Positions 1-59,420 of a stretch of DNA of 64,000 nucleotides are shown in pieces (the first letter of the stretch is position 1; each line of letters starts with the position of its first letter). Source of the stretch: a virus (Duplodnaviria; Heunggongvirae; Uroviricota; Caudoviricetes); IMG/VR virus record IMGVR_UViG_2675903433_000022. One strand, given 5' to 3'. Both the position numbers and the translations under genes were made by a program. The notes beneath the pieces were generated by a model. The model saw nothing but the letters and a program-made list of their open reading frames with translations, made no database searches and had not been told where the DNA came from.

Positions 1-746
1 TATTTTTAGTCATCCTGTTTACCTCTTTCTCAGGGAGTTTAGTCTCCAGGATTTCCGGGGCGGTTCAATACATCCTCAAAATGATGACCGCGCTTGGAGT
101 TACCCAACTCATTGCAAAAGATGCAGAAGCGGATGATCTGGCCGGGCTGCTGGTAGCCAGCATTGCACCGCAGCCAATCGTTGAACACATCTATCTGTTA
201 ACAGGCGATAGCGACTGGCTTCAGTTAGTTCGCGAAAACGTAAGCTGGGTAAGCCTGCGCGAAGACGCCAAAAACAAGCAGGTTAATTTTGAGCAATTTG
301 CGGAGCTGACAGGATTCGCTACTCCTCGCGCATTTTTGGAAGCAAAAGCATTACAAGGCGATAAATCGGACAACATTAGCGGTGTTGGTGGCATTGGTGC
401 TGGCGGTGCGAAAGAGCTGCTGCATGAATGGGGAAGTGTCGCAACGATGGTACGCGGCATCAACGACGGCTCAATCGTGGTTGACAAAGGACGCCATAAG
501 ACCGCCTTCAACAAACTAGCGAAGAATGCCTTCAACGAGAAAACAGGCTGTCGAATGCTCGAAGCGTTCAAGAGAAACATCACGCTAATGAACCTGATTG
601 AGACGAAGTTTCCGCCTACCGAAATCGAAACAATCAAAGGCAATCGTGACGTGAAAGCATTCGAGCAACTGTGCTACGAGCTGAATTTCCGTTCGTTCCT
701 TGAAGACCTTGAAGTGTTTGTTCTTCCATTCGAAAGGTATTGCTAA
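1..746 (+). CDS. 5'-3' exonuclease / flap endonuclease, C-terminal part (N-terminus probably upstream of window)
   Basis: Track ORF 81..746; frame appears open back to window start; acidic motifs EADD and LLTGDSD plus glycine-rich H3TH-like ISGVGGIGAGGAKEL typical of FEN/T5 D15-type nucleases. Confidence 0.7.
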   Translation, partial: FLVILFTSFSGSLVSRISGAVQYILKMMTALGVTQLIAKDAEADDLAGLLVASIAPQPIVEHIYLLTGDSDWLQLVRENVSWVSLREDAKNKQVNFEQFAELTGFATPRAFLEAKALQGDKSDNISGVGGIGAGGAKELLHEWGSVATMVRGINDGSIVVDKGRHKTAFNKLAKNAFNEKTGCRMLEAFKRNITLMNLIETKFPPTEIETIKGNRDVKAFEQLCYELNFRSFLEDLEVFVLPFERYC

Positions 747-1012
747 TGCTTAAATCGATTATTAATGGCGCTACAACCACCCCTACCCAACTGGCAAAAG
801 AGATTGTCTTTTATCACGGTGAGTACGCTGTCATCGCACTGCCGTCAATTCTAGGCGCTGCCGGAATGAAAGCGACAGATCGCGAGTTTGGATTAGTCAG
901 CGAGCAGGTCGTAAAAATCCTCGCTCGTGTATCCAGACTCCTTAACCACGATGCGATTGTATTCGACGAATCCGCCGCTTTAAAACGAATCAACGAAACA
1001 AAAGGAGCCTGA
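746..1012 (+). CDS. hypothetical protein
   Basis: Track ORF 740..1012 with ATG at 746 overlapping the upstream stop (TAATG); no recognizable motif. Confidence 0.45.
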   Translation: MLKSIINGATTTPTQLAKEIVFYHGEYAVIALPSILGAAGMKATDREFGLVSEQVVKILARVSRLLNHDAIVFDESAALKRINETKGA

Positions 1013-1014
1013 TC

Positions 1015-2088
1015 ATGGCAAAAGGAAAATCCGCACTGGCACTTGCTCTGAAAAAGAAAATCGGTAGCAACGACGAAATTCAGAAAGTAACTCATTGGAT
1101 TGACACAGGCTTTCCTCCGTTAAACAAAGCGATTTCCGGTCGTTACGATGGCGGTTTCCCATGTGGTCGTATCGTAGAAGTATTCGGGCCACCAAGCGCG
1201 GGGAAAACCTTTTTGGCAACGGCAGCAATGATCTCCGCACAGAAACAAGATGGTCTGGCGGTATTCCTCGATCATGAGAACAGTTTTGACGTTGGCCTGG
1301 CTGTAGCCAATGGCCTGAACGCAGATGAGGATGACGGTCAGTGGGTATACAAGCAGCCTGACACCTTCGAAGACTCTGTAGAGTTGATCGGCACAATACT
1401 TAAATTGGTACGTGATGAAGAGCTTATCCCTGAATCAGCACCTATCTGTATCGTGGCTGACTCACTTGCGTCTATGGTTCCGAACTCCAAAGCCGAGAAG
1501 TTCGAAAAGATGGCTGAAGGCACTGCCAAAGACAAAGATCAGCTAAACATGAACGACAATACGGCACTGGCTCGTGCGACAAGTGCGAACTTCCCTACTC
1601 TGGCTTTGTGGGCACGCAAATACAACGCCTGCATCATCTTCTTGAATCAGGTTCGCACAAAAATCGGTGTAATGTTTGGCGACCCTACTACGTCGCCAGG
1701 TGGAGATTCACCGAAGTTCTACGCTTCTGTACGTATCCGTCTTGGTGCATCGGTGATGAAGGATGGTAAAGAGAAGATCGGCCAGGACGTAGGCGCAGAA
1801 TGCATCAAAAACAAAGTTGCACCACCGTATGGCAAATGCACCTGGAAATTCTACTTCGATCCTACTCGTGGCCTCGACGTTATCGAATCGCTCGTCGAGT
1901 ACATGCTGGAAGAAGGATACCTGCCAAAGAACGCCAGCGGGCGAGTTGAAATTGGTGACAAGAAATACACCAAATCGCAGATCGTCGAGATGTATCGGGA
2001 GAAGCCACTGGCTGAAATCATTGCGGCTTTGCAGGCAATCGACGACCGAAGAGCAAAAGACAACCCCACCGAGTCAGTAGAAGAGTAA
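1015..2088 (+). CDS. RecA-family recombinase (phage RecA/UvsX-like)
   Basis: Walker A GPPSAGKTF; block IIFLNQVRTKIGVMFGDPTTSPGG..KFYASVRIRL closely parallels RecA [41 protein letters not shown] RBS before the ATG. Confidence 0.85.
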   Translation: MAKGKSALALALKKKIGSNDEIQKVTHWIDTGFPPLNKAISGRYDGGFPCGRIVEVFGPPSAGKTFLATAAMISAQKQDGLAVFLDHENSFDVGLAVANGLNADEDDGQWVYKQPDTFEDSVELIGTILKLVRDEELIPESAPICIVADSLASMVPNSKAEKFEKMAEGTAKDKDQLNMNDNTALARATSANFPTLALWARKYNACIIFLNQVRTKIGVMFGDPTTSPGGDSPKFYASVRIRLGASVMKDGKEKIGQDVGAECIKNKVAPPYGKCTWKFYFDPTRGLDVIESLVEYMLEEGYLPKNASGRVEIGDKKYTKSQIVEMYREKPLAEIIAALQAIDDRRAKDNPTESVEE

Positions 2089-2095
2089 ACACAAG

Positions 2096-2119
2096 GCGTC
2101 CACAGGACGCCTTTTTTAT
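2096..2119 (+). terminator. rho-independent terminator (GGCGTCC-aca-GGACGCC + T run)
   Basis: GC stem-loop immediately after the recombinase stop followed by TTTTTTA. Confidence 0.6.
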
Positions 2120-2180
2120 CTCTTGAAAATATATAAGTACTTACTTATTATTTTCGCATAACAACCACATAGGAAAACAC

Positions 2181-2381
2181 ATGATCAAAATCTATCTATT
2201 GGCAGTAGCCACAGGCGTTTCAGTGGCTCTCATCTACGGTTTACTGGTTCCGTCGCTGATTTCTACCAAGAGTGATTTAGCCGTCATGTTTGGAGTTATC
2301 GTTGGTTTTGGTGCTCCTGTAATCGGTCTTATTGCTGGTCGTAAGTTTATCAACTCATTAATCAAAGCAAAGGGGAAATAA
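2181..2381 (+). CDS. small membrane protein (two predicted TM helices)
   Basis: 66 aa, two hydrophobic stretches; conserved GGAAAACACATG initiation context; 3 bp before the next gene. Confidence 0.55.
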   Translation: MIKIYLLAVATGVSVALIYGLLVPSLISTKSDLAVMFGVIVGFGAPVIGLIAGRKFINSLIKAKGK

Positions 2382-2384
2382 GTA

Positions 2385-3215
2385 ATGAAGAAAGGTTTAC
2401 TTGCAGTTGCTCTGGCGGCTATTTGCACAATGGGTCTTACTGGCTGTGATCGCGTGGAGCCTGGATACGTTGGCATCAAAGTAAACAAATTAGGTGAAGA
2501 CAAAGGGATCGGTGAAGTGGTTGGCGTTGGTCGCCAATGGACAGGTCTTAACACCGAACTTTACGTATTCCCGACCTTCAAACAAATGAAGACCTACGAC
2601 GAGCCGTTCACATTCCAGATGAGTGACGGTACTGCTATTGGTCACAAAATTGGCGTTGCGTATCTGGTTAATCGTGACAAGGTAACGACGGTGTTCCAGA
2701 CCTATCGCAAAGGCGTAGACGATATCACCGAATCAGATCTGCGTCAGAAAATTGCCGACTCTCTAAACCGTTTGGCCAGCCGTATGACCACTGACTCATT
2801 TATCGACGGTGGTAAGGCACAATTGCTGGACAACGCACTGAAAGATATTCAGAAAGAGATGTCTCCGGTTGGTATTGAGGTACTGAGCCTGTCATGGGTT
2901 GGAAAGCCTGATTACCCAAAAACCGTCATTGAATCTATCAACGCCAAAGTAACGGCTAACCAGCGTACTCTGCAACGTCAGCAGGAAGTTGAACAACGTA
3001 AAGCTGAGGCGAATATGCTACGTGAACAGGCTAATGGTGAAGCTGATGCTATCCGTGCTCGTGCGCAAGCAGAAGCAGACGCCATTCGTCTGCGCGGTGA
3101 AGCTCTGCGTCAAAACCCGAACGTTATGGAGCTGGAAGCCATCAATAAATGGAATGGCCAGTTACCGCAGTACATGACTCAAGGGGCTAACACTCCTTTC
3201 ATTACAGTGAAATAA
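2385..3215 (+). CDS. SPFH/band-7 (stomatin/prohibitin-like) domain lipoprotein
   Basis: Signal peptide with lipobox LTGC; central region and Ala/Glu/Arg-rich coiled coil consistent with SPFH domain proteins. Confidence 0.7.
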   Translation: MKKGLLAVALAAICTMGLTGCDRVEPGYVGIKVNKLGEDKGIGEVVGVGRQWTGLNTELYVFPTFKQMKTYDEPFTFQMSDGTAIGHKIGVAYLVNRDKVTTVFQTYRKGVDDITESDLRQKIADSLNRLASRMTTDSFIDGGKAQLLDNALKDIQKEMSPVGIEVLSLSWVGKPDYPKTVIESINAKVTANQRTLQRQQEVEQRKAEANMLREQANGEADAIRARAQAEADAIRLRGEALRQNPNVMELEAINKWNGQLPQYMTQGANTPFITVK

Positions 3216-3233
3216 CTCTCTTTAAGAAGATCA

Positions 3234-3259
3234 GGCGTCCAGTTGGACGCCGTTTTATT
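3234..3259 (+). terminator. rho-independent terminator (GGCGTCC-agtt-GGACGCC + T run)
   Basis: Same stem sequence as the terminator at 2096; follows the SPFH gene stop. Confidence 0.6.
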
Positions 3260-3310
3260 CTCGTTATTAACACATACAAGAAAACAATTTGTTAAAAGGT
3301 AAAGTTAATT

Positions 3311-4135
3311 ATGCCCAACCACATTACAAACGAAATCCGAGTCATAGGTGGTACAAATAAACAACGCTTAGATTTCATACGTGCCATAACTAACAAAAAA
3401 GGTCTAATTGACTTTAATACCATTTGCAGACGTCCGAAAAGTATAGAAATGGAAGAAAACAATCATATCAGGCGCATGGCCTCTGCAATGGCGGGCGAAA
3501 CAGTTTACGACTACATGTTCGGTGAATTAAAGACTCCAGAACAGGTCGAATTAGCTATGCGTGAATCAGGAATGACACGCAAGGAAATTCGCAAAATCAA
3601 AGAGCAGGCTCTTATGCGGCTTGAGAATTATCGTCGCTATGGCTATTACTCATGGTTTGACTGGTCGCGAGCTAATTGGGGAACAAAATGGAATGCCTAC
3701 AACATCGAAATGCCCGTAAAACGTATCCCTACACGTATTAAGTACGGCCATAATTTCCGCCATACACACGTTCGAGCATATGCAAAACGAATCTATAAAA
3801 AACGTCTTGCAAGACATGCCGCAACTGGTGGTGAGTTGGTGATTCGCTTTGAAACAGCCTGGTCTATGCCAAAACCAATTTATCAAGCGATGGCTAGAAA
3901 GTTCCCGCACCTTGAGTTTGTAATACGTTATGCAGACGAAGACTTCGGCAATAACTGCGGACTCGTTTTACTTCGCAACGGCAAATGGGAATATGACTAC
4001 ATTGCACCGGCGAATAACGAACAATCGTCAGAAGAAAAAATCAAATGGCGCAAGTTCGCCTTTGAGTTATGTTGTCCTGGTATCACTCCACAAGAATACG
4101 GTCTAAATGAAGAATACGAATACGCCGGATATTAA
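3311..4135 (+). CDS. hypothetical protein
   Basis: Track ORF 274 aa; preceded by an AAACAAtTTGTT palindrome; Trp-rich segment YSWFDWSRANWGTKW; no assignable function. Confidence 0.6.
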   Translation: MPNHITNEIRVIGGTNKQRLDFIRAITNKKGLIDFNTICRRPKSIEMEENNHIRRMASAMAGETVYDYMFGELKTPEQVELAMRESGMTRKEIRKIKEQALMRLENYRRYGYYSWFDWSRANWGTKWNAYNIEMPVKRIPTRIKYGHNFRHTHVRAYAKRIYKKRLARHAATGGELVIRFETAWSMPKPIYQAMARKFPHLEFVIRYADEDFGNNCGLVLLRNGKWEYDYIAPANNEQSSEEKIKWRKFAFELCCPGITPQEYGLNEEYEYAGY

Positions 4136-4168
4136 AGAATTGTCATTTGGCTTTACGCTCGAAGCATA

Positions 4169-4921
4169 GTGGTTAAGAAGATGAAAAGAAAAATTGAAGA
4201 ACCAAAAACGACACTTAATAAACATGGGGAAAAAATTCAAACACACCCAGCGTTCGGTCTTGTGAAAACAAGCCGTGTTAGCACGACTGGCATTCGTCTA
4301 TTTGATTCAGAACTGGAACATAGAGACTATATTGAAATAGGCGTTTACGAGGCTGAACTATCCTTGGATAATGAACGAACCCGGCCACAAAGGAGTAGCA
4401 ATAGACGGCCTTTAGTTGAAATTAGACTTAGCCAGGCACAATGGGCTGCTATGGTTAGCAGTTTTGGTGTGGGCGAAGGTGTGCCATGCACTATTTCATA
4501 TAAAACCATTGGCGACTCAATTAGAGTTCATGATATTGCCGAGCAAAAAAGTATTCGACAAAAATTCAACGATCAAATAAAGGCAGCTACGAATAGTGAG
4601 ATTGATCGACTTAATCAGCAAGTATCAGAGCTAGGTGAGCTTGTGAAAAAAGGAAGAGCTGGAAAACGTGACCTTGAAGAACTATATAGAAAACTTGCAT
4701 CTGCTGTAGCTAACCTTCCTGAAAATCTGTGCTTTGCTACCGAATTAATGCAGGAGCAAATGGATGAAATTGTCTCATCTGGAAAGGCGGAGATTGAGGC
4801 GTATGTTGCAGGCACTGTTATGCGTAAAGGGTTAGCAGCATTAGGCACAGAATCATGCATTAACGATGCTCCTACTGTCTCTATCACCAAAATGGAAAGC
4901 GGTAAAGAATTACTACCATAA
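4169..4921 (+). CDS. hypothetical protein (alternative ATG start at 4181)
   Basis: Track ORF 250 aa with coiled-coil-like C-terminal half. Confidence 0.55.
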   Translation: MVKKMKRKIEEPKTTLNKHGEKIQTHPAFGLVKTSRVSTTGIRLFDSELEHRDYIEIGVYEAELSLDNERTRPQRSSNRRPLVEIRLSQAQWAAMVSSFGVGEGVPCTISYKTIGDSIRVHDIAEQKSIRQKFNDQIKAATNSEIDRLNQQVSELGELVKKGRAGKRDLEELYRKLASAVANLPENLCFATELMQEQMDEIVSSGKAEIEAYVAGTVMRKGLAALGTESCINDAPTVSITKMESGKELLP

Positions 4922-4941
4922 ATGTATCTGAGGTACTGACA

Positions 4942-5331
4942 ATGCTTTTAATTCAACCTGGGTTCGGTTTAAAGATAAAAAAAGGACATATGTTCGGTTT
5001 CAAAGAATCGAAACGAAAAATTCTGTCCATTAGATTGCCATTTATCACCATTCATTGGTTAAACAGAGAGTCAACCGATTATTGGTATAAATGTGCTCTG
5101 GCCGCATTTAACGACCCTGACTGGTTTATAGAAAACCACCATGCTGTTCGTCAGGCAAAGAGAAAAGCTAATACGACATACATGAAGGCGTATCGGAAGG
5201 CATGGAAAGAACACCGCGATCGATACCAAAAAGACATGGAGAAACTTGAATTGGAAAATATGGATCTAAGAAGGAAGCTCGGTGAAGCACGGCGAGATAT
5301 TGAAGCATATAAACGTCTTGTATCGGAGTGA
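4942..5331 (+). CDS. hypothetical protein
   Basis: Track ORF 129 aa, basic, coiled-coil C-terminus. Confidence 0.5.
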   Translation: MLLIQPGFGLKIKKGHMFGFKESKRKILSIRLPFITIHWLNRESTDYWYKCALAAFNDPDWFIENHHAVRQAKRKANTTYMKAYRKAWKEHRDRYQKDMEKLELENMDLRRKLGEARRDIEAYKRLVSE

Positions 5332-5333
5332 AT

Positions 5334-5468
5334 ATGACTTTACATTGTTTTTTCAAAGGGCATTGCTTTTCACTATACAGAAACAGAAATAATAATGGGG
5401 CATTCTACATATGTAGTAAATGTGGGAGGACAAAATATCTTCCAGATGTCAAATTTGAAGGTCCTTGA
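5334..5468 (+). CDS. possible small Cys-rich (zinc-ribbon-like) peptide, 44 aa
   Basis: ATG 3 bp after the upstream stop; CxxxxxC...CxxC spacing; below the 60-aa track cutoff, read by eye. Confidence 0.3.
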   Translation: MTLHCFFKGHCFSLYRNRNNNGAFYICSKCGRTKYLPDVKFEGP

Positions 5469-5911
5469 ATGTTTGCATTAAATGGGCAATACAGATGATC
5501 ACAACAGACTTTTCTAAATTAAGTGATTTTGAAATTAACAGACGAGTATGTGAGGCTTTAGATATGGAGGAGTATTTCTTCATACCTGATGACGAAGCAG
5601 ATTTCGATTCGGAGATCCCCACTGACGAAAGAGGTCCTGTTTGGCAGACGTCAAAAAGGGATATTAATGGCTTCCGTGCTTCAAACGGAAATTGCTTCAA
5701 TCCTTGCAACAACCCGGCGGACGCAAAGCCCATTATCGTAGAGAACAGAATTGGCATTATTCCTGCGCCAGAAAATGGATTATGGAAGGCAGCGCATAGA
5801 AAGATTGGTAACGATAATACTCCATACCATATGACTCAAAATGTAAATCCACTCCGCGCCGCCATGATTGTCTTTCTGATGATGAAAGAAAGTGAGAGTT
5901 GTACCGATTAA
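5465..5911 (+). CDS. hypothetical protein (start uncertain; alternative ATG at 5495)
   Basis: Track ORF 148 aa, same strand as neighbours. Confidence 0.45.
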   Translation: MNVCIKWAIQMITTDFSKLSDFEINRRVCEALDMEEYFFIPDDEADFDSEIPTDERGPVWQTSKRDINGFRASNGNCFNPCNNPADAKPIIVENRIGIIPAPENGLWKAAHRKIGNDNTPYHMTQNVNPLRAAMIVFLMMKESESCTD

Positions 5912-6210
5912 TGAATATATACGATTTTTTTAAAAAACCTAACACATGTGTCAGAAAAGGGTATAAACCGTCAGTCATCGATTGCTGGTCGCTATCAGCA
6001 AATAATCTCAACAATGTATTCAAAATGCATTGGGAGTTTCTTTGTGAAGCGCGCGGCGTTCTCGACATGACAGTCAGAGAAGCAATTATCTGGATTCTTT
6101 GGTTTCCGGTAAGAACATTTATGACTCTGACGTACCCATTTACCTTCTGGATTTGGGGAACCGTCCTTTATTTCATATTAAAAGGAGAAGTAAAACATGG
6201 CAGCAATTAA
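5899..6210 (+). CDS. hypothetical protein with C-terminal hydrophobic segment
   Basis: Track ORF 103 aa; Trp/Phe-rich hydrophobic stretch IIWILWFPV..FWIWGTVLYFIL. Confidence 0.4.
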   Translation: MYRLMNIYDFFKKPNTCVRKGYKPSVIDCWSLSANNLNNVFKMHWEFLCEARGVLDMTVREAIIWILWFPVRTFMTLTYPFTFWIWGTVLYFILKGEVKHGSN

Positions 6211-6622
6211 GAAACTCTACGATGCCGCAAACGCGGCTCTGGATGTTATTGATGATGAAGTATCAAAAGGCTTTCCTGAACCTGATTGGGCGCATCAGCT
6301 ACGAAACGCTATCGCCGAAATGAATCCACCAGATCCGACCACCGACGAGACAGACTGGCAGCGATTTATCCGTATGTACGCTCAGGAAATAGGTCCAACG
6401 CCAACGGCAGAGCAAGCAATGCTGCTGAAATACTTCAAAGAGGCGGGAGAGGATTTACCAATTGATGACTCAGCATATTGGTTCCACTGCGCATGGCGTA
6501 AGTATGACGTGATATTCACACAAGGCATGGGGAGCAAAGATATGGTTGTGTGGCATCTACTCCATATAGACACAGCCGTTGACAGAGTTATTGAACAGTT
6601 TTTCCCTAACCAAGAAGATTGA
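6197..6622 (+). CDS. hypothetical protein
   Basis: Track ORF 141 aa; AAGGAG RBS upstream. Confidence 0.55.
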   Translation: MAAIKKLYDAANAALDVIDDEVSKGFPEPDWAHQLRNAIAEMNPPDPTTDETDWQRFIRMYAQEIGPTPTAEQAMLLKYFKEAGEDLPIDDSAYWFHCAWRKYDVIFTQGMGSKDMVVWHLLHIDTAVDRVIEQFFPNQED

Positions 6623-6677
6623 TCGCCTATTCATAACTAACAAAATAAGTAAACACTAACCACAAAAGGAAAAACAC

Positions 6678-6953
6678 ATGAGAGTTTTAGTTCGAATCGT
6701 TACCAGCACTGTCTATGACGTGTTTCCGCTTTTTATGGTCAAAGTCGATGGCCTTAACGACGAAGAAACTGACGCGCTGATCCAGCGTACTCTTGTTGAA
6801 TATACAGGTCATGACGCTGATTCAGTGATGGTTGATGATGATGGTGTTTGTTGGCATAACGGCAACTGTTGGTACGTAGAAGAGACTCAACAAATCAGTG
6901 ATGAAGATGCCGCACATCTTGAGCGTATTTTAAGCATTGGCACTTTTGAGTGA
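6678..6953 (+). CDS. hypothetical protein
   Basis: Track ORF 91 aa; conserved AAAAGGAAAAACACATG initiation context. Confidence 0.55.
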   Translation: MRVLVRIVTSTVYDVFPLFMVKVDGLNDEETDALIQRTLVEYTGHDADSVMVDDDGVCWHNGNCWYVEETQQISDEDAAHLERILSIGTFE

Positions 6954-6992
6954 GTTTACAGTAAAATTTATATAAGTTAGTATCTACCTATC

Positions 6993-7172
6993 ATGAAGAT
7001 TTTTATTGAATACTTGTTACTCATCGCTTCAATAGCTTTTGTCATCGACTGCATTTTCACTGGTGTCATTCGTAAAGTCTTTTCCCCGGTGAACGACGTA
7101 GTCATAAACGCTTTGGCTATCGTGCTCGTATTTAATTCAGCATTTGATGTAATCAAAGAGGTGGCAGCATGA
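6993..7172 (+). CDS. possible small hydrophobic membrane peptide, 59 aa
   Basis: Below track cutoff; stop overlaps the next start (ATGA); two hydrophobic segments. Confidence 0.3.
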   Translation: MKIFIEYLLLIASIAFVIDCIFTGVIRKVFSPVNDVVINALAIVLVFNSAFDVIKEVAA

Positions 7173-7504
7173 AGGCCATCCCATTTGCGCTGTTGTTCCT
7201 TTCTTCGATCGTTGTGGCCGACACCACTGTTTATCAGTGTGAAATGTCTGTAGCCGACGTTAAGAATGGCGCTCTTACCGACGTCATAAAAGCACCATAT
7301 GGAGCGATGGTCGTAGACAGCGGCGACCAGTTCTATGTTGTGCGTGACGATCGAGTGTTGTCATCCCCATATCTCACAAACCGTAATGGCAAATTAACCG
7401 GCGTCGGAGAAGACCACTTCGTATACAACAAATACAAGGGCTTCTATGGCGTTCACGCTTCTCAGCAAAGCTACCTTTTCGATGACTGCAAGGAGGTTGG
7501 ATAA
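7169..7504 (+). CDS. hypothetical secreted protein (N-terminal signal peptide)
   Basis: Track ORF 111 aa; hydrophobic N-terminus MKAIPFALLFLSSIVVA. Confidence 0.55.
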   Translation: MKAIPFALLFLSSIVVADTTVYQCEMSVADVKNGALTDVIKAPYGAMVVDSGDQFYVVRDDRVLSSPYLTNRNGKLTGVGEDHFVYNKYKGFYGVHASQQSYLFDDCKEVG

Positions 7505-7716
7505 TGGCATTAACACTGGCAGGTCTGGAAATCGAGAAAACAAGCGGCTACTGGCGTGCTAAGGGTTTCAAGCAGCCTGGCATTCTTGAGCGTCTGGAAC
7601 GTGAAGATGGGTATATCGTCCACCAGCGGCGTGAATGGCGTATGTACGATCCAGAAACAGGAAAACTGACTACAAAAGCCGGAACACTTTGGGGTCTGTT
7701 AAAGAAAATACACTAA
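7504..7716 (+). CDS. hypothetical protein
   Basis: Track ORF 70 aa; start overlaps the upstream stop. Confidence 0.45.
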   Translation: MALTLAGLEIEKTSGYWRAKGFKQPGILERLEREDGYIVHQRREWRMYDPETGKLTTKAGTLWGLLKKIH

Positions 7717-7763
7717 ATGCAAACTGACTGCGGCACGTTCCGCAGTCATATTTCATAGTCGTC

Positions 7764-8296
7764 ACCGCTGACAGCATACACAATCAACTACCGCTGATAG
7801 CATATCGAGAGTCTATCTCACCGCTCACAGCATACTTTACTCGATTTTTTACCGCTGACAGCATACTTAAGACATTGCATGAATAATGTGTACCGGTATG
7901 GGTATAACCAGAACAAAATTACCGCTGGCAGCATACGAATGTCTGACATATGCCATTAATTACCGCTGATAGCATATCCAAACAAAAATTCCTCAATAAC
8001 ACACCGCTGACAGCATACGTTATATCAGGGAACAGCAGGCAATAAATGCCTTTCACTACAAGCAATCAGCGCAATAGCAATAGAATGTTAGTGAGCGCAA
8101 ACCTATATGGAATGCACTCTTCGAGGTTAGTAACCACTGGGGAGGTATGACAGAGCATTGAGTGGTGATAGATGATTTACCGCTCACAGCATACGTTCAT
8201 CTCACTATACCGCTGGTAGCATATCTTTAACCGTTCACAGCATACTTTTCAGAAAAATAGCCGCTGATAGCATACATTTCACCGCTGACAGCATAT
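7764..8296. repeat. iteron array, 12 copies of ~16 bp ACCGCTGACAGCATAC-like repeat (incA-like)
   Basis: Copies near 7764, 7790, 7820, 7851, 7921, 7962, 8003, 8179, 8209, 8230, 8260, 8281 with minor variants; abuts the 3' end of the RepA-like gene. Confidence 0.85.
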
Positions 8297-9390
8297 CAAA
8301 GCAGTTTGAGACTATTGGAAAGGATCTCAATCATCTTGATATTTTCAGGCGTCAAATTCTGCGAAAGTTCGGTTATCTTATTGATAATGTTCTGTTTGGC
8401 ATCAATTTCCCCGGCTTTCTCATCTGGTTTTTTGGGTTCGATGTCTTCAGGTTTTGGCGGTGCGACTTTGAGTTTTGGATTGCGGCTGTGAATCTGGATA
8501 TAGATCGACCGCCCACGCTTAATCTCGCTGTATTCGAGATAGCCCAAATCTTGGAGAGCTTTTAAGCCGTTGCGTATAGTCTGATTCTGCGAGCTGACAT
8601 TCCTGCTACTCAAATTGAGTCGCGCACGCAATCGAGCAAGCGATACCGGCGCAGGCTTGGTTGGAAGACTTTCGATGAAGGTGTACAGAGCCTGTGCTGT
8701 TTCTTTGCGTGGTAGCTTATTGATAACCTTTAACTGCAAAAGAACCTTATGGTCAAAGCGATATAGTTCGGCCAGCTTCGGTTCTGCATAGAACACCACC
8801 GTATCTTTCTGCTCGTTGTAGTCCACGCTATTGATGAGGTGCACCATCAGAAGCGAGATCTTGTTAGAGCCGTCGACGTTCTTTTCTTCATACGTTCTCT
8901 GGAAAGACAGAGTTGTACGCATGATCTTCAAAAGACTGTTTGTAAGCCGGTCGCGGAGTGTTTTGCGGATCTGTGACGATGGATAGCCACAAAACTTCGC
9001 AAATTTCGTGATGCTTAACTCGACACGACCGTTAGGTTCGCCGTATTCTGCCAGCGAACGCACAACGCCCACCCACGTTTTGAAATCATGATCCATGTCG
9101 AGACGAGGACCGGTTATCTTGATATCGGAATAGCCTTCAGAACGGGCTACTTCGAGCTGAACAAGCTCCTTTGAAGCATCGATCTCATTTGGCTTGTTAC
9201 GCTTGCTGTATTTTGTCCCCTTGAGCGTGGGCACGAACAACCCCAGCCGCATCAACGCAATTGGTTGGACTGTATTGTTGCTATTAGGGACAAGTTCCCC
9301 TGTGTACAATTCAAGGGAACCTTCTTCAAAGTTGTCGAGATTATCTTCTACTTCTTTGTTATTTTTACCTTTTTTATTTTTTGTGGACAT
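8296..9390 (-). CDS. iteron-flanked replication initiator (RepA-like)
   Basis: Track ORF 8296..9510; likely true start is the ATG at 9390 (MSTKNKK...) because the longer ORF runs into the upstream iterons; call rests on context, not motifs. Confidence 0.7.
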   Translation of the reverse strand: MSTKNKKGKNNKEVEDNLDNFEEGSLELYTGELVPNSNNTVQPIALMRLGLFVPTLKGTKYSKRNKPNEIDASKELVQLEVARSEGYSDIKITGPRLDMDHDFKTWVGVVRSLAEYGEPNGRVELSITKFAKFCGYPSSQIRKTLRDRLTNSLLKIMRTTLSFQRTYEEKNVDGSNKISLLMVHLINSVDYNEQKDTVVFYAEPKLAELYRFDHKVLLQLKVINKLPRKETAQALYTFIESLPTKPAPVSLARLRARLNLSSRNVSSQNQTIRNGLKALQDLGYLEYSEIKRGRSIYIQIHSRNPKLKVAPPKPEDIEPKKPDEKAGEIDAKQNIINKITELSQNLTPENIKMIEILSNSLKLL

Positions 9391-10356: not shown

Positions 10357-10611
10357 CCCTCCAGATCGCATATTGGCGTAGATAGAATCTACGCCTCCTC
10401 AAAATAGCTCTCATAGCGTTTTACAGTGATCCTGTCTTATTTTTAGTCATACAGACAAGCAAAGTTGCGCCACAATAAATAGGTATATACTTACTTATAA
10501 ATTTTGTATATTAAGGCGCTCGTTTTCATTCCTAACATACCGTTATGCATAGTTGTTTACCTTCTCATTGCTCTTAGAATTTGTATCAAAATAACCACAA
10601 AGGAAAAACAC

Positions 10612-15155: not shown

Positions 15156-15228
15156 TTTCATTGATAGGTAAGTGCTTATCTATTAACATGGGCCACTATA
15201 TTTAGTGGCCCTCTTTATTTGGTGATAC

Positions 15229-19740: not shown

Positions 19741-19884
19741 TTGTAGGTAGTTATCTATCTATGTATATTGTGTTGGCGCGTTAAATTCCTGAAACAACTA
19801 TTCGTTTTTGGTGGCCTATGGCCACCATTTTTTTATCTATCTGGCCTTGTTCCCTCAATAAATGTAAACTCACTTAATGAATAA

Positions 19885-21015
19885 GTGGTTACTTATCTTT
19901 GTGAGGTTTTTGTGTCACTCCTTTTGAATCGTGAGCATACGAACGGTCAGGTAACAAACGCATCGTATGCAAAAGTTATTGAGACGGTGCTTAAAAGCGG
20001 CGTGCAGGCTGATGATCGCACAGGCACTGGTACTTTAAGCACCTGCTACGTTCCCTCTTACTACATGCTTACTGGTGGGACTGTGCCGCTTATTTCTGGA
20101 AAGGCGGTAAATCTTAAGCCACTGCTTGTCGAACTTGAGTGGTATCTGAAAGGCACGGGCAACATCCAATTTCTCAAGGATAACGGCGTTAAGATTTGGG
20201 ATGCATGGGCCGATGAGAATGGCGATTTGGGGCCGGTTTACGGTAAGCAGTGGCGTCGATGGGAAGATACCCGCATCGTGAGCCATAGTGAATATCTGAG
20301 CAAGATCGATACTTTCCGTGAACGCGGGTACAAAGTCGAAGGATACCTGGGTATCAGTGAAGATCGCGTAGTGCTGTCCCGTGAAATCGATCAGCTACAG
20401 CGTATTGTCGATACACTGCGCACGAACCCTACCGATCGTCGCATCATGCTTAACGCATGGAACGTAGGCGATCTTGAGGATATGAAATTGGCACCTTGCC
20501 ACTTTGCCTTCTCTTTGTGGAGTCGTGAGCTTGATTTTGAAACTCGTTTAACGATGGCAACTGACATTGGTCTTCAACACAGTCGCCTCGGTTACGAGTC
20601 TATCTACACCAAGATGCTATACGATCTGGAGATGGACGGCAGTGTTACTGAAACTGAACTGGATGAACTTGGAATCCCCAAACGCATCCTCAACTCCTGC
20701 CTCGTACAGCGTAGCGTAGACACTTTTGTTGGTATGCCATTCAATATTGCTGGCTATGGCATTCTCACTCATTTTCTCGCGAAGATTACGGGTCACATGG
20801 CCGGTGCATTTGTGCATTTTGGCTTTGATGTGCATTTGTACAATAACCACATGGAAAGTGTGTGTGAGCTAATGAAACGACAGGCTCCAGAGCATTCAGA
20901 TCCGGTCGTTATTTTCCCTCATGAATGGTCTGAGCTGGATGATTTCAAATGGGACGATATTCTGATTCTTGGCTATGACCCTCTACCGTGGATCAAGGTT
21001 CCAGTGGCGGTGTGA
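19885..21015 (+). CDS. thyA: thymidylate synthase (start codon uncertain)
   Basis: DRTGTGTLS N-terminal motif, active-site LAPCHFAF (PCH), PFNIAGYGILTH; track start is a GTG. Confidence 0.85.
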   Translation: MVTYLCEVFVSLLLNREHTNGQVTNASYAKVIETVLKSGVQADDRTGTGTLSTCYVPSYYMLTGGTVPLISGKAVNLKPLLVELEWYLKGTGNIQFLKDNGVKIWDAWADENGDLGPVYGKQWRRWEDTRIVSHSEYLSKIDTFRERGYKVEGYLGISEDRVVLSREIDQLQRIVDTLRTNPTDRRIMLNAWNVGDLEDMKLAPCHFAFSLWSRELDFETRLTMATDIGLQHSRLGYESIYTKMLYDLEMDGSVTETELDELGIPKRILNSCLVQRSVDTFVGMPFNIAGYGILTHFLAKITGHMAGAFVHFGFDVHLYNNHMESVCELMKRQAPEHSDPVVIFPHEWSELDDFKWDDILILGYDPLPWIKVPVAV

Positions 21016-26930: not shown

Positions 26931-27031
26931 TAAGTAAGTGTTTACCTATCATTTTAAATCATGTATCTTATCGGCGTCAGGATGACAATGTGTCGGTGAG
27001 ACACAGTTCCAGGATGGAACGAGAAAGGCGG

Positions 27032-29327: not shown

Positions 29328-31013
29328 ATGAATACAGCCCTTTCCATCATCGACGATGCCAGCTCAAACACGGCTATCGACTATCGTCAGGAAATGAATG
29401 TCATCCACGAAATCGTGGCCGAGTGCGAGAAAGAGATCGCCTTCATGTATCAGGTACACGACTTCGTTTATGGCGACGAACGCCACAACATGATTAATCG
29501 CCTGCTGAGACTAAACCATCGACCAGATGAAGATCGCTCGCGTTTAAATCGAGGTTGGTTGGATAAAGTCGATCTGGAATGGGTGAAACAGAATATTTGG
29601 GCCGAGTACTGGAGGAAGGTCACGGACATGACTAACGTTTTGCTGATCATGCCAGCTTCCCGTCGAGATGAGTGGCGCGAGCAGTTTATAGAGGGCAAAC
29701 AGGAAGTCATCAAAACTGACAGAACCGGCTACCAGATGAAGGTTAAAGAGTTCGTTGGTGTACCGGAGTTCAAAGCAGAAACGGTCATACCCACGATGCT
29801 TAATTTGCTGAATGACAGGCACAAATATCTCTCTGAGCGCGTGTATGGCTTGTTTAAGGCGCTGAGTCCTGCGCACAAGACAAATAAGACAAACGGTTTC
29901 AGCGAGCGGCTGATAATCGCTGACTGCATTTCTGATTTCTGGCGGGACAGCGTTAGCGTGAACTATCGCAAAGAGGACTACATCGACGATCTGCGTGTCT
30001 TGCTTCATTTCTTCGCGCACAAAGAATTTATTACCATCAACCGTACTGCTGAGGTGCTATCAGCTGCGTATCGGGCAAACGACTGCCAGACCGGTGACTG
30101 GATGAACGTCGATGGAAATCTGATGCGCGTGAAGATGTTCAAGAACGGCAACGTTCACTTTGAAATACATCCTGACGTGGCCTGGAAGTTGAATGAGGTG
30201 CTGGCTTACAGTATGCCTGCTGCAATTCCCGCGCCATGCCGAACTGCGCCAAAAACACGGGCACCAAAGCAGTTCGGGTTAATCCAGAAGACGATCTCCG
30301 TGCCGGTTCGCACTGCGCTTCGTGACGGGCGATTGAGCAAAGACAAAGGCGTATGGTACTTCTCTGATTCAGCTCTCCAGAAGTCGCAGGTGGAAGAGCT
30401 TGAGCGCACACTGAGCTTCATTGGCGGCGTGCAGGAGAAAAAGCACTGGCAGTTCCCGTATGAGATCGGCCATACGCTAAATACGATTGTGGCTACCGGT
30501 TTAATACCGGATACAAAATCACACCAGTTCTACCCTACCCCACGCTTGATTGCTGAGTACGTTGCCAGAGCCACTGAATTGAAGCCTGGTGAGAAGCTGC
30601 TGGAGCCTCAAGCCGGACGTGGGGATCTTCTGGCCTATATTAACGCCGATCTGGAAGATGTTACCTGCATAGAAATCGCACCTCTCTTCGCTGATATCCT
30701 GCGTGGAAAAGGGTATACGAACACGATTTGCTGCGACTTCATAAAGTGGTCTGAGGACAACGCAGGTTATCAGTTCGACAAAATCGTTATGAACCCGCCG
30801 TACTCGCTTGGTCGTCATAGAGAGCACACGCTGGCTGCGCTGGGGCATCTGAAAGTCGGCGGGCGTCTTGTAGCAGTATTGCCGGGCACTGCGCCAATAC
30901 TGGACTGGATGACGATGGATAATTACGTTTATGCCAGAGGGAAGTCGTTTACCAACGAGTTTGAAGATACCGGGATCACAGTCAGCGTATACGTTTTCAA
31001 ACGCGTTAAATGA
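29328..31013 (+). CDS. two-domain DNA methyltransferase (amino-methyltransferase, NPPY type) with N-terminal domain of unknown function
   Basis: Track ORF 29310..31013, ATG 29328; C-terminal SAM-binding LEPQAGRGDL and catalytic VMNPPYS. Confidence 0.7.
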   Translation: MNTALSIIDDASSNTAIDYRQEMNVIHEIVAECEKEIAFMYQVHDFVYGDERHNMINRLLRLNHRPDEDRSRLNRGWLDKVDLEWVKQNIWAEYWRKVTDMTNVLLIMPASRRDEWREQFIEGKQEVIKTDRTGYQMKVKEFVGVPEFKAETVIPTMLNLLNDRHKYLSERVYGLFKALSPAHKTNKTNGFSERLIIADCISDFWRDSVSVNYRKEDYIDDLRVLLHFFAHKEFITINRTAEVLSAAYRANDCQTGDWMNVDGNLMRVKMFKNGNVHFEIHPDVAWKLNEVLAYSMPAAIPAPCRTAPKTRAPKQFGLIQKTISVPVRTALRDGRLSKDKGVWYFSDSALQKSQVEELERTLSFIGGVQEKKHWQFPYEIGHTLNTIVATGLIPDTKSHQFYPTPRLIAEYVARATELKPGEKLLEPQAGRGDLLAYINADLEDVTCIEIAPLFADILRGKGYTNTICCDFIKWSEDNAGYQFDKIVMNPPYSLGRHREHTLAALGHLKVGGRLVAVLPGTAPILDWMTMDNYVYARGKSFTNEFEDTGITVSVYVFKRVK

Positions 31014-31074
31014 TAGGTAAATACTTACTTAATTTGTGTAAGAATGTAGTAACTAAACGATAAGAGAAAAACAC

Positions 31075-45408: not shown

Positions 45409-45534
45409 TAATGTGCAAGTGGTAATTAGTCGACCGTACGACAGCCCCGCCATCCTTACGGGGCTTTTTTGTATTGTAAGTACATACTTACGATCATAGA
45501 ATATAAAAATAACCAAGACACTACGGAGAGTGAA

Positions 45535-52479: not shown

Positions 52480-52543
52480 AAACCTCTTTCCTTAGTGCCT
52501 TTTGTATGTTATTTGGCTATTATAATAAGTAAGTGATTACTTA

Positions 52544-55759: not shown

Positions 55760-55816
55760 CCTGCTTCTGTATATATAAATAATAAGTAACTTATTAAATA
55801 TATACGGAAGCAGGCT
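55760..55816. repeat. long inverted repeat, copy 2 of 2
   Basis: CCTGCTTCTGTATATAT ... ATATATACGGAAGCAGG, near-identical arms to the element at 25361-25419. Confidence 0.6.
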
Positions 55817-57845: not shown

Positions 57846-59420
57846 ATGGAATTGAACGACAAACAAATTAAGGATCTGGTGGCGCGACGCCACCCGGAAT
57901 ACGAAAAGAAAAAAGAACATTGGGACTTCCTCGCCAGCACTTACGCTGGCGGGCGTGGTTGGTTTACAGACAATATCTTTCGTTACTTTAAAGAGGGAGA
58001 TCAGGAGTTTAAGGAGCGAGTTGAGCGTGCTTATCGCTTCAACCACACTCGTGAGGTGGTAAACCTCATCAACAAATATCTCTTTAAAGAAGACATTCAT
58101 AGAAATATCGAAGAGGCACCAGAGCAGATCCGCAATTTCTGGAAACGTGCGACTCGCCAGAATGCCTCTATTGACTCATTTATGGCCGCTATTGATTTGC
58201 AGTCGTCTATTTACGGTCGCATATGGGTTGTTGTCGATAGCACGATGAGTGGTGATGTTGAGTCAGTAGCTGACGAGAAAAAGAAAGATGCTCGCGCCTA
58301 CGCCTACTGGATTTCACCTCAGCAAATGCTGGATGTGGCATGGGACGACGACGGGAATATGTTGTGGGCGTTAATTGTGGAAGTCGCTCGTGATGACGCA
58401 GATCCTTTTACTTCTACAGGTCAGGAATACCAACGTTATCGTCTGTGGACACAAAACGAGTGGTATCTGTTCCGTGAGGAAGTGAAGAAGGGCGCTGGTG
58501 GAGCAGGTCGCCGTCAGGCAAAAGTTATTTTAGAGGATAGCGGTGAGCATAATCTCGGCGTAGTTCCTGTGTTTCCTGTTGATTGTATTGGAGAAAGTGA
58601 ATCACCGTATTTCAGCCCATCGTTGATCGATGATATCGCTTATCTTGATCGTGCGGTTGCAAACTATCTGTCAAACCTTGATGCCATTATTCAGGATCAG
58701 ACATTTAGCCAGTTGGCTATACCGGTACAGTCGCTTTTACCTGGTGATGAAAACCACACTAAAGTGCTTGAAATGGGCACAAAGCGAGTCTTCACCTACG
58801 ATTCTGAAGGTGGAAACCAGCCGTTTTATCTGTCACCAGACCCGAAACAAGCTCAGATGATCATCACTACGATTAAGACGGTGATTAACGAAATCTACCA
58901 TTCAGTTGGTGTAGCTGGTGAGCGAACGAAGCAGGACAACGCACAGGGAATCGATAACTCATCTGGTGCCGCAAAAATGTATGACTTCCAGCGTGTAAAT
59001 AGCTTGCTTGTCACAAAAGCAGAGCGTCTGGAAAGGGCTGAACGCCAAATCATGCTACTGGTTGCGAAATGGATGGGGGTAGATCTGGACGAAGACCACT
59101 CTTTAATTGCGTATCCAGAAAGTTTCGATATTCGTGGCCTTACAGATGAATTTTCTGTTGCCGAGAAACTGTCATTACTTCAGGCACCGGACTCTGTACG
59201 TCGTCACCAGATGGAAATGCTTATTGAGAAGATTTTCCCGAACATTACTGAGGCGATGAAAAAGGAATTTGATAAAGATCTCTTGAATTTTCCGCCAAAA
59301 AATGATCTAAATACCCTTGAAAATAAGTCAGTACTTACTTATGATCGTGGTACAGCCCAAGAAAGCGGGCAAGATCAACCCCGAGGGAATGGGGACTCAT
59401 CTACTCAAGAGAACGAGTGA
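57846..59420 (+). CDS. portal protein (putative)
   Basis: 524 aa directly after the large terminase; call by size and synteny. Confidence 0.55.
   Translation: MELNDKQIKDLVARRHPEYEKKKEHWDFLASTYAGGRGWFTDNIFRYFKEGDQEFKERVERAYRFNHTREVVNLINKYLFKEDIHRNIEEAPEQIRNFWKRATRQNASIDSFMAAIDLQSSIYGRIWVVVDSTMSGDVESVADEKKKDARAYAYWISPQQMLDVAWDDDGNMLWALIVEVARDDADPFTSTGQEYQRYRLWTQNEWYLFREEVKKGAGGAGRRQAKVILEDSGEHNLGVVPVFPVDCIGESESPYFSPSLIDDIAYLDRAVANYLSNLDAIIQDQTFSQLAIPVQSLLPGDENHTKVLEMGTKRVFTYDSEGGNQPFYLSPDPKQAQMIITTIKTVINEIYHSVGVAGERTKQDNAQGIDNSSGAAKMYDFQRVNSLLVTKAERLERAERQIMLLVAKWMGVDLDEDHSLIAYPESFDIRGLTDEFSVAEKLSLLQAPDSVRRHQMEMLIEKIFPNITEAMKKEFDKDLLNFPPKNDLNTLENKSVLTYDRGTAQESGQDQPRGNGDSSTQENE

Follow-up and report, generated by a model that had tools for sequence, protein, structure and literature searches.

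A two-transmembrane hairpin protein and an SPFH lipoprotein form a coupled cassette in an SSU5-like phage-plasmid and may build a prohibitin-type inner-membrane assembly

The DNA analysed here (IMG/VR record IMGVR_UViG_2675903433_000022; the whole 64-kb stretch is called the window) is an SSU5-like phage-plasmid. Its bases 1900-3500 share 99.6% identity with Escherichia phage CMS-2020a and 79% with Salmonella phage SSU5, and they carry a two-gene cassette in which a small gene for a 66-residue, predicted two-transmembrane (two-TM) protein precedes a gene for a 276-residue SPFH-domain protein with a lipoprotein signal. The two open reading frames (ORFs) are only 3 nt apart, from the stop codon at 2379-2381 to the next ATG at 2385, in agreement with a first-pass annotation that had described a small membrane gene and an SPFH gene separated by 3 bp. 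The cassette consists of the following features.

2093..2119, + strand: upstream intrinsic terminator, which ends the RecA-like gene; stem AAGGCGTCC/GGACGCCTT, loop ACA, T-run
2123..2151, + strand: sigma-70-type promoter TTGAAA-17 nt-TATTAT, 10/12 match; its spacer and -10 hold the recurrent motif TAAGTACTTACTTATTAT (2134-2151)
2181..2381, + strand: small gene, ATG start, 66 amino acids (aa), stop TAA 2379-2381
2371..2376, + strand: Shine-Dalgarno sequence AGGGGA of the SPFH gene, within the 3' end of the small ORF and 8 nt before the second ATG, read directly
2385..3215, + strand: SPFH gene, ATG start, 276 aa
3234..3258, + strand: downstream intrinsic terminator, stem GGCGTCC/GGACGCC, loop AGTT, then GTTTTATT

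With its Shine-Dalgarno sequence sitting inside the small ORF, the SPFH gene is, on this layout, translationally coupled to the small gene. The upstream terminator hairpin (2093-2113) has a 9-bp stem with six GC pairs and is followed by TTTTTTAT, and the downstream hairpin (3234-3251) has a 7-bp stem and a T-run; a direct repeat (D2) pairs the latter region with 2105-2122. The earlier observation that two terminators of the same stem flank the pair holds, and it can be sharpened: the arrangement GGCGTCC-N(2-8)-GGACGCC occurs at exactly two sites in 64 kb, both of them the cassette terminators, and at none in 100 shuffles. Both stems are kept in SSU5 and in phage Cyrano, with different loops. 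In addition to what had been noted before, a promoter lies between the first terminator and the small ORF; it is the best sigma-70-like match in the first 9 kb (1-9000) and is likewise conserved in SSU5 and Cyrano.

Profile search of the 276-residue protein supported the SPFH assignment made in the first-pass annotation. The Pfam family Band_7 (PF01145) was matched with 106.2 bits against a cut-off of 23.6 (E=2.6e-30), over residues 23-209 (nt 2451-3011) and profile positions 2-176 of 176, and PHROG 200, labelled 'lipoprotein', was matched with E=3e-108. The AlphaFold2 model, computed from a 60-sequence alignment with a predicted local distance difference test score (pLDDT) of 91.7, shows an α/β SPFH domain composed of strands at 21-95 and 164-176 and helices at 97-162, followed by a 65-residue long helix (179-243), a short helix and an extended C-terminus. 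The C-terminal segment carries the family motif W-x-G-x-x-P, in which W256 and G258 never vary and conservation of P261 reaches at least 90%. Foldseek comparison of the model against the PDB ranked the human prohibitin complex (8rrh), E. coli HflK/C (7vhq) and erlin (9vvj) at the top, all with probability 1.0; stomatin and flotillin also reached probability 1.0 but ranked below them, with the stomatin-NfeD complex QmcA-YbbJ at rank 38. A sequence search of the PDB gave HflK as the sole match, at a marginal E=0.007. Orthology to HflK or HflC was rejected, with 30.2 bits against a cut-off of 134.4 for the HflC model (TIGR01932) and 18.7 against 159.4 for the HflK model (TIGR01933).

The N-terminus of this protein, MKKGLLAVALAAICTMGLTGC, has the layout of a lipoprotein signal peptide (aa 1-20), MKK-GLLAVALAAICTMG-LTGC21, with a basic n-region, a hydrophobic core and the lipobox LTGC ending at Cys21 (codon 2445-2447), so that its earlier description as a lipoprotein is borne out by the lipobox. 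The lipoprotein signal peptide would therefore place the SPFH domain in the periplasm. An exhaustive profile search against 1.84 billion representative sequences yielded 195 clusters at E<1e-30, and most of the best 150, which were examined, have a lipobox cysteine at residue 16-26. Asp22, at position +2, lies in the segment CDRVEPG of all enterobacterial alleles seen; in E. coli lipoproteins, Asp at +2 is the signal for inner-membrane retention through avoidance of the Lol system. Enterobacterales contain hundreds of close relatives, which bear the name 'SPFH domain-containing protein' or, where the record is old, 'putative serine protease'. The latter label and that of 'transposase', attached to the SPFH gene in phage phiP27 (L05) and several other records, are wrong.

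The 66-residue protein contains two hydrophobic stretches, at about residues 4-27 and 34-52, separated by the short polar loop STKSDL, which agrees with its earlier description as a small protein with two TM segments. Its C-terminal tail of 14 residues has five Lys/Arg and no acidic residues. Because of this basic tail and the positive-inside rule, the protein is predicted to be an N-in/C-in hairpin, with both ends in the cytoplasm and the loop, which bears the motif P-S-L-I-S-T-K-S-D, in the periplasm. It matches PHROG 1130, 'membrane protein', with E=9e-26; no Pfam family was matched at E<=0.1 and no NCBIfam model, NfeD being among those not matched. A profile hidden Markov model (HMM) built from 26 hairpin sequences, with the core motif P-x-[LM]-[ILV]-S-[AST]-x-[SD], matched exactly one ORF in the window. 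Judged from its sequence, the 66-residue protein belongs to a family of its own, marked by the P-x-L-I-S loop motif, and not to NfeD; besides the missing Pfam match, it has no room for an OB-fold or a protease domain.

The pairing of the two genes is conserved widely among phages. IMG/VR holds 411 loci of the SPFH protein, and in nearly all of the 80 that were retrieved the hairpin ORF lies directly upstream of the SPFH gene, with a 3-nt gap or a 1-4-nt overlap. In a group of alleles from chromosomal prophages the small ORF extends across the SPFH start. These alleles (SPFH protein 78% identical; L051, L055, L065, L076 and about 30 more) carry an A-run of six to seven, of variable length, about 20 nt upstream of the SPFH start and near the 3' end of the small ORF, which alters the C-terminus of the small protein and the overlap; slippage at this tract or faulty assembly could account for the variation. 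The pair also occurs in the lambdoid Stx phage phiP27 (AJ298298, L002), where the partner is an unannotated 62-aa ORF at 3756-3944, and in the P2-like phage P88.

Search by tblastn detected the SPFH protein in 413 of 50,697 phage records. Strictly virulent phages are among them, namely the N4-like, PVP-SE1/rV5-like and LUZ24-like groups, FelixO1-like Erwinia phages, a T7-like Desulfovibrio phage, phiCbK, Lak megaphages and a crAss-like phage. A hairpin homologue stands immediately upstream of the SPFH gene in the N4-like phage Moo19 (gp30/gp31, annotated as similar to N4 gp19/gp20), Vibrio phage CKB-S1 and the T7-like phage ProddE, and one gene further upstream in PVP-SE1 and Pseudomonas phage TL. 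The SPFH family occurs in 373 of 5,426 complete E. coli genomes; in 195 of them, including clinical strains and an O104:H4 strain, the full cassette is carried on plasmids of ~100-112 kb, and about 180 further genomes have partial or more distant (~75% identical) matches only, nearly all chromosomal. The hairpin thus appears, from these gene orders, as an obligate-looking non-NfeD partner of the phage SPFH lipoprotein family.

Bacterial genomes show the same arrangement. A set of 80 bacterial loci, collected with a single peptide pattern and so biased toward Dyella, contained 77 with enough upstream sequence; a separate partner recognised by the HMM lies directly upstream in 52 of them, the partner is fused in two and is recognised by the motif only in three (57/77 in total). 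In Leptospira and Dyella the pair is chromosomal and outside prophages, lying beside sdhCAB in the former and between a BlaR1-like gene and ribonucleotide reductase genes in the latter; both sets of neighbours were read from N-terminal sequences rather than profile-tested. As these chromosomal pairs suggest, phages appear to have borrowed a bacterial membrane module with a general function.

In about 18 of the 150 representative clusters the two proteins are fused into one chain of 320-390 aa, in the order hairpin (with its motif), third hydrophobic segment and SPFH domain; Pfam sees Band_7 alone in such proteins. One fusion, P0125, was found identical on contigs from three sequencing runs and in a phage-like context. 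Its AlphaFold model has TM helices at 2-27, 32-53 and 59-73 (pLDDT 80-90) ahead of the SPFH domain. The topology of the fusions fits that of the split proteins, in that the end of the hairpin and the signal-peptide n-region to which it is joined are both predicted to be cytoplasmic. All 18 (P0125, P0135, P0136 and 15 more) have a lipobox-like cysteine right before the SPFH domain, at residues 75-99, and the fusions may still be processed as lipoproteins, with signal peptidase II cutting inside a three-TM precursor. Fusion, combined with the conserved, translationally coupled adjacency, strongly indicates that the two proteins function as a unit. The earlier view of an insulated, coupled pair is strengthened by its recurrence across unrelated phages and bacteria and by these natural fusions.

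Comparison with other SSU5-like alleles gave a ratio of nonsynonymous to synonymous substitution rates (dN/dS) of ~0.03 for the SPFH gene and 0.11-0.24 for the small gene in well-diverged comparisons; the values of 0.34-0.52 for the small gene come from three near-identical pairs with very few changes. Both genes are thus, by their substitution patterns, under purifying selection, the small one less constrained and evolving 4-5 times faster than its neighbour, and the small ORF is a real gene; positive selection on the small protein was rejected on the well-diverged values. Cyrano (L001), a further locus (L027) and a few IMG/VR loci have an SPFH gene nearly identical to that of the window (dS 0.03-0.11) alongside a divergent small gene (dS ~0.63). 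The contrast in dS (0.03 versus 0.63 in Cyrano) therefore indicates that recombination has taken place at the junction between the small gene and the SPFH gene.

In the SSU5-like family the cassette lies in the replication and recombination block, with genes for SSB, an exonuclease and RecA upstream and RepA downstream, and it occupies the same site in CMS-2020a, PhiR41_1, Cyrano and SSU5. Its G+C content is 0.46-0.49, compared to 0.49 for the neighbouring RecA-like gene. In other phages the neighbours of the module include genes for DNA polymerase, exonuclease, ligase, RNA polymerase II and small early proteins.

The cassette promoter overlaps the motif TAAGTACTTACTTATNAT, which is partly palindromic (GTAAGTACTTAC plus a -10-like TATnAT) and has 14 matches in the window at <=3 mismatches, against 0.14 expected. 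Ten of its 11 distinct sites are intergenic, and the sites precede the SPFH cassette, an SbcD-like nuclease gene, a helicase gene, the head scaffold gene and others. They are located as follows.

2134-2151, 10484-10501, 19882-19899 and 26935-26952: motif TAAGTACTTACTTATNAT
15161-15178, 52522-52539 and 55779-55796, - strand: motif TAAGTACTTACTTATNAT
31010-31035, 45473-45494 and 59320-59345, both strands: motif TAAGTACTTACTTATNAT

The motif probably serves the plasmid-prophage repressor as its operator, or is bound by a transcription factor of the phage; TAAGTACTTACTTAT is the candidate protein-binding sequence. Since the promoter motif recurs at other genes of the phage, the cassette is tied into the phage's own transcription programme. 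Like the morons of HK97 and lambda, the cassette comes with a promoter of its own, is flanked by terminators and lies between backbone genes, but it differs from them in its native recurrent promoter motif, its flank-like G+C content and its presence at the same site in all SSU5-like relatives examined. A moron of foreign composition was rejected on the G+C content, and the promoter motif is common to backbone genes. With its native motif, matching G+C and fixed site, the cassette therefore looks like a resident component of the genome and not like something added recently.

Taking together the gene structure, the SPFH fold, the lipobox, the conserved pairing, the fusions and the genomic context, all of which are shown here, we propose with a probability of about 0.55 that the two genes encode two parts of one prohibitin/HflK-C-type inner-membrane assembly made in phage development. 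The 276-residue protein would be exported and lipid-modified at Cys21, with its SPFH domain on the periplasmic face of the inner membrane, and by the example of its nearest structural relatives the 65-residue helix and the conserved C-terminal segment would drive the formation of a ring or cage. The hairpin, made in step with the lipoprotein via translational coupling, would serve as the membrane-embedded base of the cage in contact with it, and in other lineages the same hairpin would be the N-terminal part of the SPFH chain. Such an assembly would mark off an enclosed area of the inner membrane. As an insulated unit on the phage's own promoter type, within the replication and recombination block, it would therefore act mainly in development and not in lysis.

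The SPFH domains of prohibitin, HflK/C and erlin lie on the non-cytoplasmic side of their membranes, and the solved near relatives enclose a membrane protease or ligase, namely HflK/C with FtsH, prohibitin with the m-AAA protease and erlin with RNF170. The client is the least certain step of the proposed mechanism; by analogy it would most likely be a quality-control factor of the inner membrane, FtsH for instance, or more generally some fragile envelope component that has to be stabilised for the phage. Control or sequestration of such a quality-control factor would be the single most likely function, put forward tentatively and by analogy with these relatives.

Compared to known systems, the proposed assembly is close in form to the HflK/HflC-FtsH complex of E. 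coli (7vhq, 7wi3, 9cz2), which shares an SPFH domain facing the periplasm from the inner membrane, a long helix and a C-terminal segment. HflK and HflC differ in being two paralogous SPFH genes, each with an N-terminal TM anchor, whereas the unit in the window has one SPFH gene, a predicted lipid anchor and a two-TM partner. The cages of prohibitin (PHB1/2) and erlin1/2 are the best structural matches (8rrh, 9o9z, 9vvj) and also hold the SPFH domain on the non-cytoplasmic side, but in eukaryotes they are TM-anchored hetero-oligomers that lack a small hairpin partner. Bacterial relatives of the window protein are named 'prohibitin family protein' by NCBI, and the homologue in ProddE is annotated as cd03401; this SPFH_prohibitin group of CDD probably corresponds to SPFH4 or a minor subfamily of Hinderhofer et al. 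2009.

Several points weigh against the proposed assembly. Lipidation, location, oligomerisation and the contact of the two proteins are predictions from sequence and a model. The residue at +3 is Arg, which may influence the Asp+2 retention signal. The scores against the HflK and HflC models fall far below the cut-offs, and the link to FtsH is one of analogy only. No partner was recognised, by HMM or motif, at 20 of the 77 bacterial loci, mostly from Bacteroidota and Ignavibacteria and also from Kapaibacterium, and none upstream of the SPFH gene in Erwinia phage phiEa104; the SPFH protein can therefore work alone or with a partner that goes unrecognised. Adjacency and fusion show a functional linkage, not the specific role of a cage base. 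In the plasmid-prophage state the promoter may be either active or silent, and the motif may act as a repressor operator or as an activator site. Finally, an 'HflK/C-like' SPFH protein from a prophage island of Pasteurella multocida was reported in outer-membrane vesicles, acting via TLR1/2, and its deletion attenuated virulence (PMC9872710); this protein, PM0222 (OAZ06802.1), would bear on the window family if it is a homologue.

A broader version of the proposed assembly, which we regard as a speculative minority view, is that the pair represents a distinct, undescribed two-component and sometimes single-chain prohibitin-type cage system of bacterial inner membranes, repeatedly captured by unrelated phages to seize or shield an inner-membrane function of the host during infection; FtsH might be sequestered, for instance, or abortive-infection effectors that target the membrane might be neutralised. 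Capture would then have occurred in SSU5-like, lambdoid, P2-like, N4-like, T7-like, rV5-like and LUZ24-like phages and in phiCbK, and the fusions would be precursors cut by signal peptidase II, which releases the hairpin and the mature lipoprotein side by side.

The strongest rival to an assembly that serves phage development is superinfection exclusion, in which the SPFH assembly and the hairpin would block DNA entry or membrane penetration by later phages. T4 Imm and Sp, P22 SieA and HK97 gp15 are exclusion proteins that act at the inner membrane, and exclusion genes are classically both expressed early by lytic phages and found in prophages. The insulated cassette with its own strong promoter is consistent with such a role, as are the early regions in which the module lies in virulent phages (N4-like, beside a gene annotated as P22 gp17-like, and TL), its place among small membrane proteins behind annotated promoters in PVP-SE1 and the early-left or accessory regions that it occupies in temperate phiP27 and P88. 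The fast evolution of the small partner and its exchange by recombination also fit. However, its dN/dS well below 1 gives no sign of an arms race, and neither protein matched a defence model of PADLOC-DB v2 at E<=1, by which membership of a known defence system was also rejected. The chromosomal pairs in Leptospira and Dyella lie beside housekeeping genes, and the phages that carry the pair differ greatly in host and entry mechanism, which a generic membrane function fits better. No experimental report of exclusion was found in the literature. On balance we consider exclusion possible but rather unlikely.

Lysis timing, which the first-pass annotation had raised, would make the 66-residue protein a holin- or antiholin-like factor and the SPFH lipoprotein a modulator of the time of permeabilisation. 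Its size, two TM helices and basic C-terminus are superficially like those of class II holins. The close relative Cyrano, however, has a full holin-endolysin-Rz/Rz1 cassette at 26.7-28.2 kb, about 30 kb away from the module at 57.5-58.5 kb, and on these positions membership of the module in the lysis cassette was rejected. No lysis genes were seen beside the module in eight other phages examined, and in every phage examined it lies among early or replication genes. The hairpin is moreover conserved beside or fused to SPFH genes in bacterial chromosomes, unlike a holin. A role in lysis timing is accordingly disfavoured and appears improbable.

Still more doubtful is an NfeD-stomatin-type function, in which the small protein would act as NfeD does and bind or process the C-terminus of a stomatin-like scaffold. 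The first-pass annotation had pointed to a likeness with these operons (QmcA-YbbJ, 8z5g; YqiK-YqiJ; FloA/FloT-NfeD2), and as regards the layout the likeness stands: in both cases a small membrane gene lies upstream of and coupled to the SPFH gene, the partner probably aids assembly of the scaffold, and QmcA-YbbJ is among the fold matches. It fails for the proteins themselves. Stomatin-NfeD systems face the cytoplasm, whereas the window protein is predicted to be periplasmic and is prohibitin/HflK-C-like rather than stomatin-like, as its weaker match at rank 38 indicates. The partner is nearly all two TM helices in 66 aa and lacks an NfeD, OB-fold or protease domain, and membership in the NfeD family is refuted already. 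In a 2009 survey of prokaryotic SPFH operons, NfeD partners were found for the stomatin-like, flotillin-like and SPFH5 subfamilies only, and none for prohibitin-like or minor SPFH subfamilies (PMC2636767).

Lysogenic conversion is a further alternative. Here the lipoprotein would mainly be a TLR2-stimulating host-interaction or virulence factor that the lysogen displays or releases, and the small protein would be incidental, as the vesicle-borne SPFH protein of Pasteurella, if homologous, and the plasmids of the 195 E. coli genomes with their clinical strains might suggest. The module is common in strictly virulent phages and environmental bacteria, the conserved partner and the fusions point to an inner-membrane machine, and Asp at +2 counts against sorting to the outer membrane under the established Lol-avoidance rule; such a role is very unlikely. 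Least probable of all is a toxin-restraint or abortive-infection pair, in which the hairpin would be a membrane-damaging effector checked by the SPFH scaffold: small two-TM peptides are common membrane toxins and the genes are tightly coupled, but stable fusions of both parts and housekeeping contexts in chromosomes are hard to reconcile with a toxin, and PADLOC gave no match.

The genes on either side of the cassette differ among its relatives.

1015-2088, + strand: RecA-like gene upstream of the cassette, 357 aa, Pfam RecA E=2e-42
3311-4135: gene directly downstream of the cassette, 274 aa, DUF1281_C / Api92-like ferredoxin-like domain (Pfam E=2.4e-16; PHROG 12644)

The RecA-like protein has 779 aa in Cyrano (L001 1850-4189) compared to 357 aa in the window, where it aligns with no more of the long PHROG 9666 profile than positions 487-779; the Cyrano/PHROG version therefore has a large extra segment, N-terminal or inserted, which is possibly an intein or a fused domain. 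The DUF1281_C / Api92-like gene is missing at this site from Cyrano and SSU5, where different small genes take its place. In phiCbK (L087, 2495-4887) an RtcB-like gene is found two genes away from that of the SPFH lipoprotein, and a 2026 paper describes the Pseudomonas aeruginosa SPFH gene PaFlo8 as embedded in an rtc RNA-repair locus (PMC13086221); the resemblance may be a coincidence.

RefSeq and PHROGs already label the protein as a member of the SPFH family, and its occurrence in phages is on record. According to a 2026 phage paper, it remains unclear why a phage genome should encode an SPFH lipoprotein (PMC13239085). Literature searches on the function of phage SPFH proteins, on N4 gp19/gp20 and on phage 'prohibitin family protein' gave annotation-level mentions only, and no account of either the hairpin partner or the fusions was found. 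The gp19-gp20 pair of coliphage N4, linked here through the annotation of Moo19, and PHROG 1130/200 are the same two families, which stand there as database groupings without function and unlinked to each other. What is new is the operon type, an SPFH lipoprotein with a non-NfeD two-TM hairpin, either split or fused.

SPFH scaffolds such as prohibitin, HflK/C, stomatin and flotillin are a current focus of membrane biology, and most bacterial members are without a known role. The module described here travels with replication rather than lysis genes, and a widespread 'hypothetical' module thereby becomes testable in tractable phages such as N4, SSU5-like phages and P88. For annotation, the mistaken 'putative serine protease' and 'transposase' labels and the missing partner ORF of phiP27 can be put right. 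If the client is FtsH or a defence effector, the assembly would reveal how phages, quite generally, condition the envelope of their host.

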